Source: Zootoca vivipara
Lineage: Eukaryota
NCBI RefSeq assembly: GCF_963506605.1
Contig: NC_083277.1
Location: forward strand, 44,144,001-44,208,000
Length of the DNA stretch: 64,000 bases
Direction of reading: 5' to 3'
Of the stretch, positions 1,823 to 64,000 are shown piece after piece. A program made the translations under genes and the position numbers. The notes below the pieces were generated by a model. It made no database searches and was not told the origin of the DNA. It worked only from the letters and a program-made list of their open reading frames with translations. Each line of letters begins with the position of its first letter. The first letter of the stretch is position 1.

Positions 1823-2407
1823 CTACAATAAAAAAGAAGCAGTTATTCAATATGTATTTTTAAACAACTGGTGGTATGTTTTCACAGCAGCAGATTAAAA
1901 TAAGCTTTGCATGTCATCTGAACTGGAGATTGTAGTCAAGCTCTATCCTGCTAAACCATAATCTGTAACCAAGAACAAACCTTGGTTAAGGAGGGGAGAG
2001 ATTAACCATGACCCCACATTTGGATGGCATGCTAACCCACACATTTGTTTAGTTGCTAGGTCGTGCTGAGCTCAAAGTTGTGGGGAGGGGCTCAAAGGAC
2101 TGTGGCAGCCTCCCTGGAAACCAGTACGTTTGTGTGTTCATGCTAAACAACAGTTCTTTGTGTGCACAGTGAAATTAGAAACTGAAATTACAGCACAATA
2201 TTAAATTAAGTCCTGCAAATCTTAACTGCTTGTAGTTTTAAGTAAGCAAAAATGTTGGGTACCAATCTGGATTGATGGGTGCAATTCCTTCCTTCCTTCC
2301 TTCTTTTTATTTACGTAAAGATTTTATACCACACATTTCACATGTATCTCAAGGTGGTTTTGAGTGTATGAATTAGCTATGAATCGAAGCAAAATTAAAT
2401 GACAAAC

Positions 2408-2529
2408 CTGTGCTGAAAGGGATTGAGTAGACAAAGCTTCCTGGTATCTGTTCTGCAGCTCTTCTGTACCAAAGCGGGAAATGATCAGCATTGAAAATAT
2501 TCTCCTTGTCTCCAGCTGTCAAGAAGTCT
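2408..2529 (-). CDS. CACNA2D3: CACNA2D3 exon (~26), 122 nt: DFLTAGDKENIFNADHFPLWYRRAAEQIPGSFVYSIPFST
   Basis: ttcaag|AGACTTC...AGCACAG|gtttgt; diagnostic FPLWYRRAAEQIPGSFVYSIPF motif. Confidence 0.97.
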
Positions 2530-2920
2530 CTTGAAACAGAAGAAAATATAATATGTTTGCTTGTTTTGGTTTCTACATCTTAAGCGCCTTAAAAAGTTTT
2601 CTTTCTTTCCTTCTTTCTTTAGTTCTCCTGAAAGTAACTCTAAAATAACGTAAGCTACCCTCTCGATACCAGAGTCACTGGTGTCAGAATGGCAGCCCCA
2701 CATGCACCTGGTTACAACTGCGTTTACAATGCCTTCCCAGGTAGAATGCACCTAAAATAAACATACTGCGGTTAATAAGCATAGCTGCTGCTAAGACACA
2801 GAAGCTGGAAAACCTGACTCCTCCTCAGCTTATAGGTAGCCCCAGCAACCAAGCAATGAACATCTTCCAGGAAGCATAACAGACAAGCACATTAGGCCTT
2901 ACTTTATTGATGTTTCAATA

Positions 2921-3108
2921 CAGTGGTACCTCGGTTTAAGTACACAATTAGTTCCGGAAGTCTGTACTTAATCTGAAGCGTACTTAACCTGAAGCGAACT
3001 TTCCCATTGAAAGTAATGGAAAGTGGATTAATCCGTTCCACGCGGGTCCGCGAAGTACTTAAACTGAAAGTACTCAAACCGAAGCGTACTTAAACCGAGG
3101 TATGACTG
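2921..3108. mobile_element. Tc1/mariner-pogo MITE
   Basis: TIRs cagtggtacctcggtttaagtac / gtacttaaaccgaggtatgactg; TA TSD. Confidence 0.9.
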
Positions 3109-3769
3109 TATTTGGTTTCAATATTTGTATTTTTGTTATTTCAGTTTTGATTGTGTAGGTTGCTTTGAGACCCTTTGGTGTAAGAACCAACAAATAAATA
3201 TAATAACAAATAATAATAATAGTAAAGTAGCATGTGTGTTGAGAAAAACCAAGAAAAGGAGTGCATGAAACAATGCTGAACCATTGCTTTCCAGGGTTGT
3301 TGGGTTTTTTTGGGGGGGGGGTGATTTTATTTTACAAAACAAAAGAAACAGATGTGCGCAGAAGGGCTTTGGGCTTGTGTTTTTCAAAGAGCAGTCCTCC
3401 AAGCAACATGTAAATGGAGGTGCTTTCAAAAACATGAGAGTTCAATGTGTAATGGGGATGGTGAGGTTTCTTCTTCTTAGGCATGCTTTAAAATAAGTCT
3501 TGAGATTCTGGGCATTCTCACTTAAAATGTTATTTTGTAGCTAGCAATGCATGATGAATTGGGTGCAAATAGGGAACCATTTTCTTGGGAGATTCAGGGG
3601 GGGGGGGAATCAAGGGGATAGATATCCATTGCCTTTTGGGGGGTATATGAGCTGTATTAAACCTGCTAAAAACAGATCTGCATTCTTTGTGTGATGAGGC
3701 AGGATGAAACAGTTTGAAAACTGAATGAACAATCTGTTATGCACAAGCATCCCAAATTAAATCCCAAAT

Positions 3770-4240
3770 TTATTTTCTTTTTAAACATTTATACACCATC
3801 TTCCAAACAAAATCCCAAGGAGGCTAACACACTATGCAATAGACAAAACACATTGCAATAAATGAAAATGAAATCATAAATTCAGTAACTGGTACATTTC
3901 TCAAGGCCAGGCGTTTTACCTCCATGCCGCCGCCCAAATAAGCTCAGCTGAGGTGTGCAAGTGCACTTTCAAGATTAGCCAAAAACTCAACGAGGTTGGC
4001 ACCCACCTTATTTCCACGAGGACACAGCTCCATAAATTGGGCATTGCAACAGAGAAGGCCTTCCCTGGTTGCTACCAGATGCATTTCTGCAGACTGTAGT
4101 GCAAGCAAGAGGGCCTCATTCTGAGATCATACTGGCTACTCTGGTCTGAAGAGGTGAAGGCATCCCCTCAGATAGCCAGGTTCCAAGTTGTTCAGGGCTT
4201 CCTAAATCAGCAACTGAAGCTCACACTTGGCCCAGCAGAG
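3770..4240 (-). mobile_element. Old L2-like LINE 3' fragment
   Basis: Degenerate L2 motifs (acagagaaggccttcc, ccaagttgttcagggctt); boundaries approximate. Confidence 0.55.
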
Positions 4241-4389
4241 TTTTAGTGTCCTTTGTTTTGACACATGGAATCTGAACTAGAATGCAGAGAACTGGTGGGG
4301 AAGGGAAAGAAGGGACTATATAAAATTATGTGCATGGTTCTCTACTTCCGGTACTGCTTTCTTACATTGCCATATACGGTACTACTTAC

Positions 4390-4485
4390 TGATTAGTTAG
4401 CTGTTCCGGTCCCACAAACAAATTGACACGAGAAAGACCCGTCCGAGTTCCAAGGAAGGCAACTTCCACTCCCTTGTCTGAATTT
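4390..4485 (-). CDS. CACNA2D3: CACNA2D3 exon (~25), 96 nt: NSDKGVEVAFLGTRTGLSRVNLFVGPEQLTNQ
   Basis: cttcttcag|AAATTCA...CTAATCA|gtaagt; in frame with neighbouring exons. Confidence 0.97.
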
Positions 4486-4732
4486 CTGAAGAAGAGCAAC
4501 ACGCAAGGAAGAATTACATTTCCAGACGGTAAATGGTACGCAGATATTCTGAGGTCACAAGAAGTGCAAGCACAAACCAGGACTGCAATTTTAATCAGTT
4601 TTAATAAATATACTAATCAACTTAAGCTTTAACTGAAATTAAAATATTTCCCCAATTAATTAGTGGGAGTTGGACTGAAAGGATAAACTATTAAGCAGTC
4701 AACACAGATGCACAATCTCCCTTCCTCTAACC

Positions 4733-4868
4733 CAGGCATCCCCAAACTGTGGCCCTCCAGATGTTTTGGCCTACAACTCCCATGATCCCTAGCTAACAGG
4801 ACCAGTGGTCGGGGAAGATGGGAATTGTAGTCCAAAACATCTGGAGGGCCGAAGTTTGGGGATGCCTG
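4733..4868. mobile_element. 136-bp hAT MITE
   Basis: TIR caggcatccccaaact...agtttggggatgcctg; perfect 8-bp TSD ctctaacc (4725-4732 / 4869-4876). Confidence 0.93.
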
Positions 4869-4923
4869 CTCTAACCTATAGTTGTGTGCAAATGGCTGCT
4901 TGAAATTATCCGAATTATCCTAT

Positions 4924-5062
4924 ACATCTGAAGGCAGCCCTGTATAGGGAAGCTTTTATAAAGGTGAATGTTTTACTATGTTTTTATGTATGCTGGAAGC
5001 TGCCCAAAGTGGCTGGGGCAACCCAGTCAGATGGGTGGGGTATAAAACAAAACAAAACAAAA
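4924..5062 (+). mobile_element. L2 LINE 3' terminal fragment
   Basis: acatctgaaggcagccctgtatagggaagctttt...ggtggggtataa plus an A-rich tail; matches ~23990-24140. Confidence 0.8.
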
Positions 5063-6449
5063 CACCCTACTTTTAGATGACTGGGAGCACAATTTATCTC
5101 AATTTTTCAAAGTTGGGGAATAAGAAATTACCTAGCAGGTTTTTTCAGGGGGTGGTTGTGGGGCTCACCATTACCAGTGGCTGTAGCACACTACCATTTA
5201 ATTTAATAATGGGGAATATTTTGGGGAAATTATGCGAGGTGACCTTTTTATAGGGGGTGATGGGGGGGGGGGAATCTCAGAAGTTTCCCCAGCTCTAATC
5301 TGATGCTCTATCAAGGCTGCAACCCTGCACATTCTTAGGAGTAAGGACTAGCAGAGTCATTCCAGGATATTGTTTTTCATTGCCCCCCCCCCCTACCCTT
5401 CAAAAAGGAAAAAAAGGAAAAAAGGAAAAGACACTCCACTATTCTTCATGTGCTTTTAAACAATGTCCTATTGGTCCCTTAAGTGAATCTTCTATATTCC
5501 CTTCCCAGTTTCCCTTTTCAAAATTGGTTTTAAATGGCCTCAAATGTGGCCTTAATGCACTGATTTTATGCAAAACACCCCGAGAGCGAGTCAGCAGGGG
5601 CACTGCATGTCAATCTTGGGTTTTATTATTATTATTATTAAATTAAATGCTGTCCGTGCAATTTCATTTTGCAGCTCCAGAAAAAATGACGCCATGAGGG
5701 TTGTCAGGTGGCTGCCTAGAGATTCCCCCCATAGCCCTTTAATGGGCTGCTGACCTGGAAGACAAGAGAGTCCTCATTTCTCTCATCCATTATGCTGCAG
5801 GCTCTGTCATCAGCCTCCCTCCTCAGCTGATGTACAGCTCACTTGCTCATTACAGCGGGTAGGGGATGATTGTAGGGGAATGACAGGACTGAGGATAGCC
5901 ACACAGCTGCCGAATCTTTTATTTTAGTAATGGGTTTAATGGAAAGGAGAAATAGCTGGGTTTCAGCTTAGCAACCCTACATGCCAGGGCTCCAAACGAA
6001 GTCACATCACAGCCCCAGTTTTAGAAAACACCAACAGTTGGTAGCAGCACCTCAGAAGAGAGAGTAGTGGCACTCTCAGGATGCCAGCACAGCAAAGCCT
6101 GTACCAGGAGGACAGTCTAGATCAGGGGTAGCCAGTGTGGCCATTGGCTTAGGGTTGATGGTTCCTGGAGTTCAACAATACCTGGATCACACCACATTGG
6201 AAATCTATGATTTAGGTCATTATTCTGTAAGTATAGTATTTTAACACCCATTACTCTAAACAAAATAAAAAAAATTCCCTCCAGTAACACCTTAGAGACC
6301 AACTAAGTTTGTCATTGGTATGAACTTTACTCTATGAACCATTCCTCTAGTACAGAAGAGGTTCTAAAGAATGTAGACATGAATTGACTCTTTCCACTGA
6401 TACTAATGGAGGAGTCTATAAGGGCAGGTGAATTATTTCTGTGCATCAT

Positions 6450-6923
6450 TGTAAGGGGGACTCCCTACAGGGAGCCAGCCCCCATCATCCTAACGTCCAC
6501 CTCATCAAGTACAGAGAGCACCAGTGGTTCTGAAGCAGCCAGAGGGGGAGGAAGAGACTCAGAGGGGGAGAGAAATCAGAGTGAGGAACAATAGAAAGCT
6601 CAGGCGGAGGGATGCAGGCAGATGCTTGGGGATACTGCAGAGCCAGAGAACCGACTGCTGAGGGAGGAAACTGAAAGGGCATCACTCCTTCCGGCGCCAG
6701 AAATAAGGAGAGCACCGCAACGCAGGTCAAGGGGGTGGCGCTTCGGGGTGCCCAGACTACTTTGCTGGCGTAGGAACAGACGTACGCCATTGCCGGATTT
6801 TGATTCGGGATGAGAGGTCATGTTTTAAGCTGTTTCTACACTGTAAATAAATAGCACAATAAACTTCTTTGAAGACAAACTGGACTCTAGTTACTCTAGA
6901 GTAGCCACGCCGACCCTCTGACA
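6450..6923 (+). mobile_element. Solo LTR, Ty3/Gypsy, related to the LTR at 63309
   Basis: TGTAA...TGACA termini; perfect 5-bp TSD atcat (6445-6449 / 6924-6928); AATAAA signals at ~6846-6863; U5 motif gttactct..agtagcc shared with the 63309 LTR. Confidence 0.92.
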
Positions 6924-7023
6924 ATCATATATTTAAAACAATGAATGAATTGGTGAAAATAAATGTATGCAACCGAGTGAAGACATTATTAAAAGAATAA
7001 TAAGCAATGCTCTGTTCACTTAC

Positions 7024-22233: not shown

Positions 22234-22768
22234 TGTTGTGACGTGGGGGTTCGTGATTTCAGCAAGCATTACCGCTCTCTGACATAGTATGCTGGAGACA
22301 GTTTCTCTAGTAACTCTTCTTTATTAAGGCAAACAAGACTGAGCCCTGAGGAGAGGGAAGCTACATTTATAGGGAAAGGGAACTTGCTTAAAAGGGATAC
22401 ATTTTGGAGGGAACAATATCAAGCAATCACAGTGCTGCCTTTTGGTGGAAACCAATAGGACTGAGGATCCAAATGCAGCAGTTTAAATGAACCAATAGTA
22501 CCGGTAGCTGTTCCTTCTGGAACCAAAAGTAGCTACTTTACCCCAGGCACCCCCAAACTTTACCCCAGGCACCCCCAAACGTCGGCCCTCCAGATGTTTT
22601 GGACTACAATTCCCATCATCCCTGACCACTGGTCCTGTTATCTAGGGGTCATGGGAGTTGTAGGCCAAAACATCTGGAGGGCTGCAGTTTGGGGGTGCCT
22701 GCTTTACCCTAATGTGAATACAGACAATAGTAATACAGATATAATATCCTTTGAATCAATACACAACA
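22234..22768 (-). mobile_element. Solo LTR (sense to the host gene) carrying an inserted hAT MITE
   Basis: Inverted termini tgttgtg...cacaaca; TSD acact/atact (1 mismatch); minus-strand ATTGG boxes, TATAAA at ~22366-22371, AATAAA at 22320-22325. Confidence 0.75.
22566..22701. mobile_element. 136-bp hAT MITE
   Basis: Same family as 4733-4868; TSD ctttaccc (22558-22565 / 22702-22709). Confidence 0.92.
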
Positions 22769-36471: not shown

Positions 36472-36827
36472 TACTACTACTATTTTTATTACTGAATTTG
36501 TATACTGCCTTTCATCCACAGATCTCAGGGTGGTTTTTTCTACACACATTTCCACAACCCGCTCTATCTGCCATCCAGGCAGCACCAGAGTTCAAGGACA
36601 CTCAGGGAGGATGCAAAGAGGGGCTGGTGAAGTGTGTGACATGGGGACAATCTGAAGGGCCAGACAGAGAGGCTTGGAGGACTGAATTTGGCTCCCAGGC
36701 CTGAGGTTCCACATCCCTGCAGTAAACAACAGAGCTACAATATTCACCTCATTGCATGCATGCATCTTCTCTCACTCTCTTCTATATTTTAGGGGAAATA
36801 AACAGATATATACACATCAATCTAGCA

Positions 36828-36963
36828 CAGGCACCCCCAAACTTTGGCCCTCCAGATGTTTTGGACTACAATTCCCATCTTCCCCGACCACTGGTCCTGT
36901 TAGCTAGGGATCATGGGAGTTGTAGGCCAAAACATCTGGAGGGCCGCAGTTTGGGGATGCCTG
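36828..36963. mobile_element. 136-bp hAT MITE
   Basis: Same family as 4733-4868; TSD atctagca / atctaaca. Confidence 0.92.
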
Positions 36964-38452
36964 ATCTAACACATTTAGTGTTGCCAGTAGTGGCTGTGGG
37001 ATGCCTTCCGGAGGACCTTGGGCACAGTGGGGTTCTTGGCCCCTCCCTTTCCTCCTCTAGCCACACCTCTCTCTCTCTTGGCCCCATCCCTTCAAACTAA
37101 AACACATATTGATCAGCATGGCAACCCACTATTGTCAAATGTTAGTATTTCACTCGTTGCCTTTATTTATTTATTTAGCCAGCAGTATAACTTGGAGTTC
37201 ACCTAATCCACTACCCTATACACACTCGTCTGGGAGTAAGTCCTACTGAACTTACATGTGGGGCTAATTCACATATGATGGATTAGGTAAAAGGTAAAGG
37301 TAAAATTATTATATGATGGATTTCCCTGTCACAAGTAGACACCTATCACTTATAGAATCCCATGCCAGGAAAAAGTGCAAGAAGATGCTTAAGAAGGCTC
37401 CAAATCTCCACGGCTATCCTTAGAATATATGGAAGCAAGTCTTGTTTATTTTAGCTTCTGTGGTTCCTTTGGACGAGAAAGCCCCCCAAATACAGTATTC
37501 CCAGAAACTGTCACAGCTGTCACTGACAGAGCTTATGACTGAGCTCAATGTGAAATCTCAATTGTTGTGCTTTGTGAGAAATCCAGCTGTCCTGCCGAAT
37601 TAAAATGAGGGGAGGAGTTTCAAATATGCCTGCTCAGGGCTCCTCAGATTTTTAAATTAAAATATCCTGGATTGGGCTATGATGTTTACCATTTACACCC
37701 CAGGGTTTTGGCAGGGCACAAGTTACCCCTTGCCCAGTTCTACTGGTAGCAGAACTTTGGCTTTACAGAAGGGAAGAGAAAAATGAAGCGTCCCTGCTTC
37801 CTTTACTCCAAAGTTAACTGAGCAATATGATTTATCAGAAAGGAGGAACCTAAAACATAATTAGCAGAATGTAAGTGCAGAAGATGTGCTGCTCTTTATT
37901 TTCCATGCAAAATGGGAGTTTTTTTTTTAAATAAAAAAACAACAATGGAGATAAGGAAAAACCTTGATTTGGTTTAAACCACTTCAATACTGAAAGACAA
38001 CAGGAGACTATGGCAAATGGACCTAGGCACCTTACTGTCTGTGATCAAGAGAGTAAAAAATAAATAAAATAGACAGACATAATACTATATGCATAAAAAG
38101 GGGCTATTTCTAATTCAGACGCTCATACAATTTCCACTTTCAAACCTCAGAGATATATTGGAAGTAATCTGAGAGCAATGTAGTGTTGTATTAGGCCTGA
38201 AAGTACATGCATAATCAAATTTAGCACTGCACTTATTCCAATAGCAATCCTACCCCTTTTGACAATGCTTCTGTTACACAGCTGACTGCCCTCATTGATT
38301 GCAATAAATGTATCTTCAAATCACTGATGTCTAGTCATTAAAATGTCCCCTAGTGGAAAAAACCCGCTGCTGATAGCTTTGGCAGATGTTCTGTACAACA
38401 CAGCTTTACCGCTGGGAAGGCAGATCAAATACGGAAATAGTTTTAAACCTGC

Positions 38453-62920: not shown

Positions 62921-63308
62921 AAAATTAACTCAACTAAAAGATATCATGGAACTCTAGTGCTGAGCAGAATTCTCATGCCTTGAACAAATGATTAGAAGGT
63001 CATCCAAACAAGGACCACTGAGATTCTTTCTGAAAAGAAAGAAATCAAATAACAAAAAGGTGCCAGGCTGAAAACTGTTTTGCTATATGTATCATGCCAT
63101 TTGACTAAAGAGAGAATATTATCCCAAAGTCTCTAGTTTGGTTATGATGTACTGTTAGATTATGTGCTATGGAACATCTAATAAGATATGTAAATAAAGA
63201 GGCTTTACCAAAGCCAAGCTGTTCAGGGTTTAAGATTAATTCCTTCCCAACTAGGCCTAATCTTCCCTGATTGGCCAATAACGGCAAAGAAGACACTCAG
63301 AAGCCCTC

Positions 63309-63736
63309 TGTGAGGGACAGGGGATATCGCGAAGTCCCTCCCCTCCTGAGTTCAAGCCCAGCCCCGAGCACAGGGGAAAGCAGAGGAAGCTCCGAGTCCA
63401 GCGGGGAAGCAGGAAGTCGGGTCCGAGGCTCAGGCAAGGTAGCGGAGCCAGGGTCCCAGGTGGAACAGGAAGGGGCCAAGAAGGAGGGGAGACCCATCCC
63501 CCCAACTCCAGAATTACGCAGGAAGAGGAGGGGAAAGAGGATGGGGCTTCCAAAGCTTTTGTGTTGGGGAAAGACGCGCCAAAAGTCATTCGGAGGTTCT
63601 GAAAGCGACTGACAACATCACTCTGTGTAAATAGCAATGAATTCCTCACTGTAAATACGCAGCACCAATAAAAGAATAAAATGCAGAGCTGCGTAGCGTC
63701 GTTACTCTGAAGTAGCCTGATCCGGCCACTGTGACA
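63309..63736 (+). mobile_element. 5' LTR (428 bp) of a Ty3/Gypsy retrotransposon, Tf1/sushi-like
   Basis: TGTGA...TGACA termini; AATAAA at 63667 and 63675; homologous to solo LTR 6450-6923; followed by a short leader and a gag-like ORF. Confidence 0.9.
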
Positions 63737-63738
63737 GC

Positions 63739-63749
63739 AACCTCCGAAT
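63739..63749 (+). promoter_or_regulatory. Putative self-priming primer-binding site (AACCTCCGAAT)
   Basis: Exact reverse complement of ATTCGGAGGTT at 63588-63598 inside the LTR; no TGG tRNA-type PBS after the LTR. Confidence 0.75.
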
Positions 63750-63779
63750 CTTTTTTTGGGCTACTTTGGAGTTGCCGGG

Positions 63780-64000
63780 ATGAGTGCATCAGAGGCGGAG
63801 AAATGGCGGCAGATCGCGGAGAAAGCCCAACAGGACCTGCAGCAGCTGACGTTGGAGGCGCAGGGGGAATTAAGGGCAGCTAAAGAAGAAACCAAGAAAC
63901 TCCAAGACGACCGGGTACAACTTGCGGAACAGGTGAGAGCGCTCCAGGAAAGAGAGCAGCAATTAAGGGCGGTGGCGGTAGACCTCCAAAACAAACTGGA
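63780..64000 (+). CDS. Gag N-terminus (coiled coil) of the Gypsy element, runs off the window: MSASEAEKWRQIAEKAQQDLQQLTLEAQGELRAAKEETKKLQDDRVQLAEQVRALQEREQQLRAVAVDLQNKL...
   Basis: ATG 44 nt after the LTR end; 73 codons without a stop to the window edge; heptad E/Q/L/A-rich pattern. Confidence 0.8.
   Translation, partial: MSASEAEKWRQIAEKAQQDLQQLTLEAQGELRAAKEETKKLQDDRVQLAEQVRALQEREQQLRAVAVDLQNKL

Follow-up and report, generated by a model that had tools for sequence, protein, structure and literature searches.

The window, by which we mean the whole stretch of 64,000 nucleotides of Zootoca vivipara that was analysed, ends inside an LTR retrotransposon. The LTR at 63309-63736 is the 5' LTR (428 nt, TG...CA) of a full-length element of 5811 nt, the 3' LTR of which is identical to it. 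The window also contains a solo LTR of an older sister family. The features, in window coordinates, are as follows.

63304-63308 (no strand): left copy of the 5-bp TSD; the same 5-mer stands after the 3' LTR
63309-63736 (+): 5' LTR
63310-63612 (+): U3/R frame of 100 aa, closed by the TGA at 63610-63612; at this end of the element it is an untranslatable duplicate
63487-63609 (+): conserved C-terminal block, consisting of P-E-L-R-R, a basic run, G-L-P-K-L-L-C-W and an acidic/Ser end
63588-63598 (+): self-primer, with which the RNA is predicted to begin (11 nt); it overlaps the last codons
63667-63684 (+): two AATAAA signals; poly(A) addition is likely near LTR nt 376, judged from sequence and RNA read ends
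63739-63749 (+): PBS, an exact complement of the self-primer
63780-64000 (+): start of gag (Retrotrans_gag, Ty3_capsid, zinc knuckle)
6450-6923 (+): solo LTR of the older sister family, with a 5-bp TSD at 6445-6449 and 6924-6928
6451-6813 (+): orphaned tail frame of the solo LTR, with one private TAG at 6592-6594

The part of the element beyond the window end lies in locus L031 (G000:C2:44207000-44213600), in the coordinates of which the remaining features are:

1857-5996 (+): pol frame, PR-RT-RH-IN-SH3-chromo-tail, from the frame and the Pfam order
5484-5537 (+): TIM-like motif 1, Pol aa 1210-1227
5574-5627 (+): TIM-like motif 2, Pol aa 1240-1257
5693-6120 (+): 3' LTR, the first 304 nt of which close the pol frame

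Elsewhere in the window there are three copies of a palindromic, MITE-like repeat of about 140 nt (4725-4878, 22558-22711 and 36821-36970), which are 93-98% alike.

Gag comprises 408 aa, and pol runs for 1379 codons from stop to stop in the -1 frame relative to gag. The gag/pol overlap contains the heptamer G GGA AAC together with a hairpin, and we take the heptamer to resemble the slippery site of PEG10; Gag-Pol would be made by a -1 frameshift. The Pfam order on the Pol of the window element (P0002) is protease, RT, RNase H, integrase, SH3 and chromodomain, the last of these (PF00385, Pol aa 1109-1154) scoring 25.6 bits against a cut-off of 25.1 and having a degenerate cage. There is no env, no further long ORF being found between pol and the 3' LTR of this element. 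The self-primer (LTR nt 280-290) is the exact reverse complement of the 11-nt PBS, and the same arrangement, with a different and co-varying 11-12-mer, is found in two of four other elements (one has no match and one gave no result). This complementarity is the predicted self-priming layout of Tf1/sushi elements, as set out in the part of PMC6317226 cited here. In a tree of RT-RH (48 rows, computed without named V-clade reference sequences), the window element groups with chromovirus Pols of fish and Podarcis (11 rows, 100/98). A genome search with the LTR gave 40 scored matches among 2224 candidates, mostly paired 5.4 kb apart. The element is a young, full-length, self-priming chromovirus of the Tf1/sushi type (Metaviridae).

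An earlier note on this DNA described a frame that starts at LTR base 2 and runs to a TGA at an equivalent position in both LTRs. This is correct: the frame covers 100 aa in the window LTR and 120 codons in the solo LTR, in the same phase. In the full-length element, pol meets no stop codon in the polypurine tract (PPT) and terminates 304 nt into the 3' LTR. Because the pol frame is continuous through the PPT, the U3 frame is almost certainly the last 100 codons of pol, that is, of the integrase gene, and its coding copy is the one in the 3' LTR (Pol aa 1280-1379). Of the two origins that had been suggested for it, the C-terminal extension of Pol/integrase into the 3' LTR is thus borne out. 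In all 38 young full-length copies examined the frame crosses the PPT/LTR junction uninterrupted, over at least 24 codons, and 37 of them give the complete 100-aa U3 part, the whole pol frame being open in 15. Among these 38 copies U3 has no stop and no shared frameshift; pol has several. The PPT-LTR junction is spanned by 16 RNA reads, in two of three raw runs.

The same layout is found in relatives. Three Podarcis Pols have the same V-D/V-R junction, and two of them (P0047 and P0048) end in the same C-terminal block. In six elements that are 77-90% like the solo LTR, and decayed by frameshifts, the LTR is immediately preceded by a purine tract, with TIM-like motifs upstream, and for this reason the frame of the solo LTR is regarded as an orphaned Pol tail. 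Its internal TAG, already seen in the earlier note, is private to the window copy (one of 30 family copies, the other 29 having TGG), and the ATG at 6406 belongs to the host flank and not to the solo LTR.

RNA read ends in one run cluster at LTR nt 376, just past the two AATAAA signals (20 molecules at a depth of 55). The cluster likely marks the poly(A) site, and the U3 stop codon is therefore inside the transcript. The self-primer falls within the last eight codons, and since the same DNA is both promoter region and self-primer, these codons are dual-coded, as had been proposed.

Behind the chromodomain, Pol has a tail of 217 residues, of which 117 (27 of them acidic) precede the LTR and 100 are LTR-coded; the last 45 residues hold 14 K/R. 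The pre-LTR part of the tail, which lies beyond the window end and directly upstream of the 3' LTR, contains two copies of W-x-x-[IV]-F, each followed by nine S/T/D/E-rich residues and F-L-G-F. In older families there are two or three such motifs per element, with linkers of 8-10 aa that contain D/E plus several S/T, and with L, V, R, E, P or W as the x of FxGF. A pattern describing only the helix half gave 38 matches and none in a control; 23 matches, in 20 loci, were inspected, and 20 of the 23 have FxGF at the expected place, with Gly encoded by all four codons and with the codons of the motif varying freely at synonymous sites. The motifs are thus conserved at the protein level, and so is the tail as a whole, in several families of the lizard genome and in Podarcis. 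The 29 motifs that were aligned all have W-x-x-x-F, the pattern by which they were selected. Before FxGF, position -4 is usually D, -1 is D or E, and -2 is usually T or M, being acidic in the first-position motifs of older families. The published D/E-x-E-x-F-x-G-F consensus is thus matched in part, with Thr and not Glu usual at -2. The strict motif does not occur in the 127,996 six-frame residues of the window. In three loci (L171, L178 and L196) partial LTR copies have come to lie, apparently by rearrangement or nested insertion, just upstream of the last TIM-like motif and of the 3' LTR.

The published TIM consists of a helix, an acidic, S/T-rich linker of 8-16 aa with CK2-type S/T, and FxGF, and is often present in tandem; in the part of the review cited here, FxGF is given as typical of binders of LEDGF and HRP2 (PMC9987994). 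The W..F spacing of the lizard motif is i,i+4, which is that given for F129/F133 of MLL1 in the cited part of PMC8022399. The predicted tail motifs fit this LEDGF/HRP2-binding layout. The strict FxGF motif occurs once in each of the three Podarcis Pols, together with a looser first one; the other 117 of the 120 Pol relatives have no motif, one of them having a bare FxGF. The motif-bearing Pols (the three from Podarcis and P0002) form one branch of the 48-row tree (100/100, stem 0.91). All four have lost the third aromatic residue of the chromodomain cage and three of the four the first, whereas the third is kept in 13 of 16 others. The same loss of cage aromatics is described for type II chromodomains, in the part of PMC3059260 cited.

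The tail is predicted to be disordered, with no helix predicted in it when free, and AlphaFold2 applied to Pol aa 1014-1379 folds only the SH3 and chromodomain, leaving the C block undocked. A profile of the 29 motifs searched against the PDB missed the TIM-bearing LEDGF fusion entries and returned only IFT43 (E 1.1), and Pfam gave weak matches only for the motifs (XRN1_DBM in 3 of 29, UvrD_C_2 in 2, XendoU in 1) and none for the U3 part. Searches with the tail alone returned no homologue among 3199 candidates, among 1.84 billion representatives or in the PDB; in the ESM Atlas the matches are under 0.9 and owed to the chromodomain. The host genome has the IBD exon of HRP2; the exon search that found it did not return a LEDGF exon. 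A complex of the lizard HRP2 IBD (P0008 461-547) with one motif (36 aa), predicted from single sequences, scored 0.01 in both runs against a mark of 0.34 and is given no weight for or against binding.

We consider that the tail is probably a targeting module of the integrase, which would tether the integration complex to the H3K36me2/3 readers LEDGF or HRP2; that the tail motifs themselves make this tether we put at even or slightly better. Because the motifs match those that grip LEDGF, the tail would likely steer insertions into active genes. In this proposal the tail would stay on integrase after protease cleavage, and TIM-like repeats from several integrase subunits would bind the IBD/TND of LEDGF or HRP2. 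The binding would bias insertion towards transcribed gene bodies, replacing the reading of methyl-lysine by the chromodomain. The LTR-coded basic run could serve in nuclear import or in contacts with DNA or the nucleosome, and V/L-x-x-L-L-C-W may be a further short docking site for a putative partner. The LLCW block presumably bears a partial resemblance to Groucho eh1, PP1 RVxF and HP1 PxVxL. A wider form of the proposal, in which the clade has abandoned the reading of methyl marks by the chromodomain in favour of tandem mimics of the LEDGF/HRP2 motif on integrase, an LTR-coded docking/basic module and gene-body insertion, is in our judgement evenly poised. Tethering by an integrase tail has precedents in MLV and Ty5, in the part of PMC4176367 cited.

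The most serious alternative accepts that the frame is the tail of Pol, and holds that FxGF binds another TND protein (TFIIS, ELOA, MED26, IWS1 or PNUTS) or an unrelated protein of the host or element, and acts in nuclear import, particle assembly or transcription and not in the choice of site. The binding surface is shared among TNDs, and many TNDs read a helix with an acidic linker, according to the cited part of PMC9987994; position -2 deviates from the LEDGF consensus as described above. In addition, an internally deleted copy of the family (L104/L105, G000:C2 near 8.31 Mb) has gag fused in frame with the tail, TIM-like and U3 parts included, so that the tail can travel without integrase; the idea that this copy is a spliced product was discarded, the junction having no GT-AG. 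Set against these points, FxGF is invariant while its x varies, and in the same review FxGF is tied to LEDGF/HRP2; also, the position that the tail occupies, behind the chromodomain of integrase, is the usual one for targeting domains, according to the portions of PMC3059260 and PMC4176367 cited. We therefore regard this alternative as possible, with a clearly smaller chance than the targeting module.

Mimicry of a different host ligand was also considered. Menin binds a motif F-P-x-x-P. Family A, the young family of the window element, and some other families have R-P-[FI]-P-P-x-P, and for this reason menin-binding mimicry was examined; the host MEN1 was found, and the idea was rejected, the stretch not being kept across families. 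It is worth adding that P0058, a sister chromovirus from Podarcis, has no FxGF and an intact cage, and that its acidic tail ends in an R-R-S-A-R-L stretch, which we take to be like the nucleosome-binding core of HMGN. The tail of P0058 may be another LTR-coded chromatin hook.

Returning to the targeting module, its LTR-coded part is very probably under purifying selection at the protein level. The earlier note claimed that the two LTR peptides align despite low nucleotide similarity, which holds: the alignment of window and solo LTR peptides scores 119 against 23.8 ± 7.8 (maximum 69) for 2000 shuffles, and scores in the other two frames are 22 and 25. Global nucleotide identity is 253 of 488 columns, and a self-BLAST of the window lists no match between the LTR at 63309-63736 and the solo LTR. 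Identity is concentrated in codon positions 1 and 2, with 7, 9 and 3 of 13 identical at positions 1, 2 and 3 in the N block and 8, 11 and 4 of 13 in the C block. When this block was searched for with a codon-degenerate pattern, 203 matches were obtained, against 2 for a reversed control. In older families, collected with a pattern in which the C block has no part, codon positions 1, 2 and 3 have nucleotide diversities of 0.12, 0.11 and 0.46 (18 of 30 rows used; of those dropped, 7 also had the motif and 5 were truncated LTRs). The tails of the Podarcis Pols P0047 and P0048 score 64 and 78 against shuffle maxima of 51 and 66; that of P0046 is below its shuffles, at 37 against a maximum of 59.

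Selection was counted on variants common to at least two of 37 copies, scored against the window copy with an expected synonymous fraction of 0.275. In U3, 22 variants are synonymous, 16 are replacements and none is a stop (omega 0.28); the other two sense frames have 2/36 and 8/30 synonymous/replacement. Twenty of the copies were found by a pattern that fixes eight codons, and without these codons U3 has 17/15 (omega 0.34, p 0.002). In the 17 copies for which DNA likeness was the sole criterion of choice the count is 7/11 (omega 0.60, p 0.2). The C block (aa 1339-1379) has 14/6, or 9/5 without the pattern codons (p 0.004), and the linker alone 8/10 (p 0.09). For comparison, omega is 0.07-0.09 in RT, RH and IN, 0.25 in gag and 0.23 in the pre-LTR tail. 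These figures are to be read with the reservation that variant sites are not independent, and that a number of the shared variants derive from lineages with frameshifts (a +1 at element nt 1890 is present in 10 copies). The sister family's old solo LTRs, 30 in number, give an omega of 0.9-1.1 (1/10 without CpG sites), and 12 of the 30 frames are open; an omega near 1 is expected after neutral decay and is uninformative. The proposal in the earlier note that a polypeptide is under selection is supported. Two reverse-strand ORFs over the LTR (63257-63760 and 63297-63617) were dismissed as shadows: one reverse frame gives 20/18 plus a stop variant, its count being due to third positions common to both frames. 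As a separate matter, family A copies show recurrent indels of 1-5 nt at homopolymer runs in pol (element nt 1890, 5247 and 5336), one being common to 10 of 37 copies; copies with such indels have spread recently or slip often, since their LTR pairs are still near-identical.

Some constraint on U3 at the DNA level is likely too, because in the three elements that were compared LLCW is 20 nt ahead of the predicted start of the RNA, lying at about 21-32 nt before it, the second Leu of LLCW is TTA in 15 of 18, the first 13 U3 codons have no shared variant in family A, and the self-primer lies in the last codons. This could be carried further, to say that U3 is kept mainly for DNA or RNA reasons (att end, a promoter element about 30 nt before the start, and self-primer) and that the frame is a tolerated read-through without a function of its own. 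The constant spacing from LLCW to the self-primer and the TTA bias would agree with that, as would the weak signal in the unbiased subset and its absence from the old solo LTRs. However, synonymous changes at third and first positions predominate in the C block, the excess there persists without the pattern codons, the block is conserved in Podarcis, and the 38 copies have neither a U3 stop nor a shared frameshift. An explanation of U3 conservation by DNA or RNA alone is already disfavoured, and we consider it improbable.

RNA-seq reads are several times as deep over the LTR as over the internal region next to it. In three runs (X11-X13), strongly one-stranded reads enter the LTR (L031:5693-6120) from many flanks and fall off after AATAAA, suggesting that host transcripts end in these LTRs. 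The extra LTR reads are read-through from many different flanks (101, 86 and 141 loose ends, with an agreement of 0.42-0.48). They show that transcribed DNA contains many of the copies. This agrees with a gene-body preference without testing it, because poly(A) capture would enrich such copies. The depth over the LTR might also have favoured the second origin suggested in the earlier note, a separate accessory gene of the nef/sag type made from a spliced or internal transcript, but this is very improbable and was abandoned: the frame is continuous with pol, its first ATG is at codon 78 (58 in the sister family), no GT-AG joint into U3 was found in about 6% of each of three raw runs, and the extra reads come from the flanks.

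Coding of pol into the LTR is known from plants, so that the U3 frame alone is a modest extension to vertebrates, and the overlap of pol and LTR in vertebrates may already be in print. What is new is the presence of TIM-like repeats just upstream of the LTR. In the literature that was searched, neither a retrotransposon with FxGF/TIM motifs nor the lizard tail is described; the part of the TIM review cited here names only lentiviral integrases under viral mimicry, with no occurrence of 'transpos' (PMC9987994). If LEDGF or HRP2 is indeed bound, the cofactor of HIV integration would have been captured a second time, independently, by a vertebrate retrotransposon that is young and present in high copy number, and an LTR retrotransposon would have converged on the lentiviral tether by linear-motif mimicry. 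It would also offer an answer, open to testing, to the question of how sites are chosen by vertebrate chromoviruses whose chromodomain is degenerate, and would supply natural motif variants for studies of IBD selectivity.

The window element shares with vertebrate Tf1/sushi chromoviruses the order of gag and then PR-RT-RH-IN-chromodomain, the self-priming PBS, the grouping with fish and Podarcis and the 5-bp TSD; it differs in its 217-aa tail, the 2-3 TIM-like motifs, the 100 LTR-coded residues and the degenerate cage. The closest parallel for the LTR-coded end is in plants. In CRM group A and in Beetle and Bingo of beet, pol likewise runs on into the 3' LTR, and this LTR codes for the end of the integrase, a proposed targeting domain, according to the cited parts of PMC3059260 and PMC3605345. 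There, however, the place of the chromodomain is taken by the LTR-coded CR motif, with centromeres as its target, whereas the lizard element, in a vertebrate host, keeps a chromodomain upstream of the PPT. No Pfam or database match links the lizard tail to the CR motif, and plant Pols are on a distant branch of the RT-RH tree. The window element works like CRM group A in having an LTR-coded integrase end, and is not a member of it.

The predicted motifs resemble the TIMs/IBMs of MLL1, JPO2, IWS1, MED1 and CDC7-ASK, as presented in the cited parts of PMC9987994 and PMC8022399, in having a putative short helix with an aromatic i,i+4 pair, an acidic, S/T-rich linker and FxGF, in tandem and in a disordered context. 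They differ in being carried by the integrase of a mobile element, in the Trp that leads the helix, in the usual Thr at -2, and in having no profile match to solved TIM complexes. The use of a host chromatin reader as a bridge, predicted for the lizard element, is shared with lentiviral IN and LEDGF, the MLV IN tail and BET proteins, and Ty5 IN and Sir4; with MLV and Ty5 it would further share a disordered C-terminal IN tail as the hook, and POGZ, a domesticated transposase, is a known partner of LEDGF (all from the part of PMC4176367 cited). HIV, on the other hand, binds the IBD with its folded catalytic-core dimer, whereas the hook predicted for the lizard element would be a copy of the cell's own linear motif.
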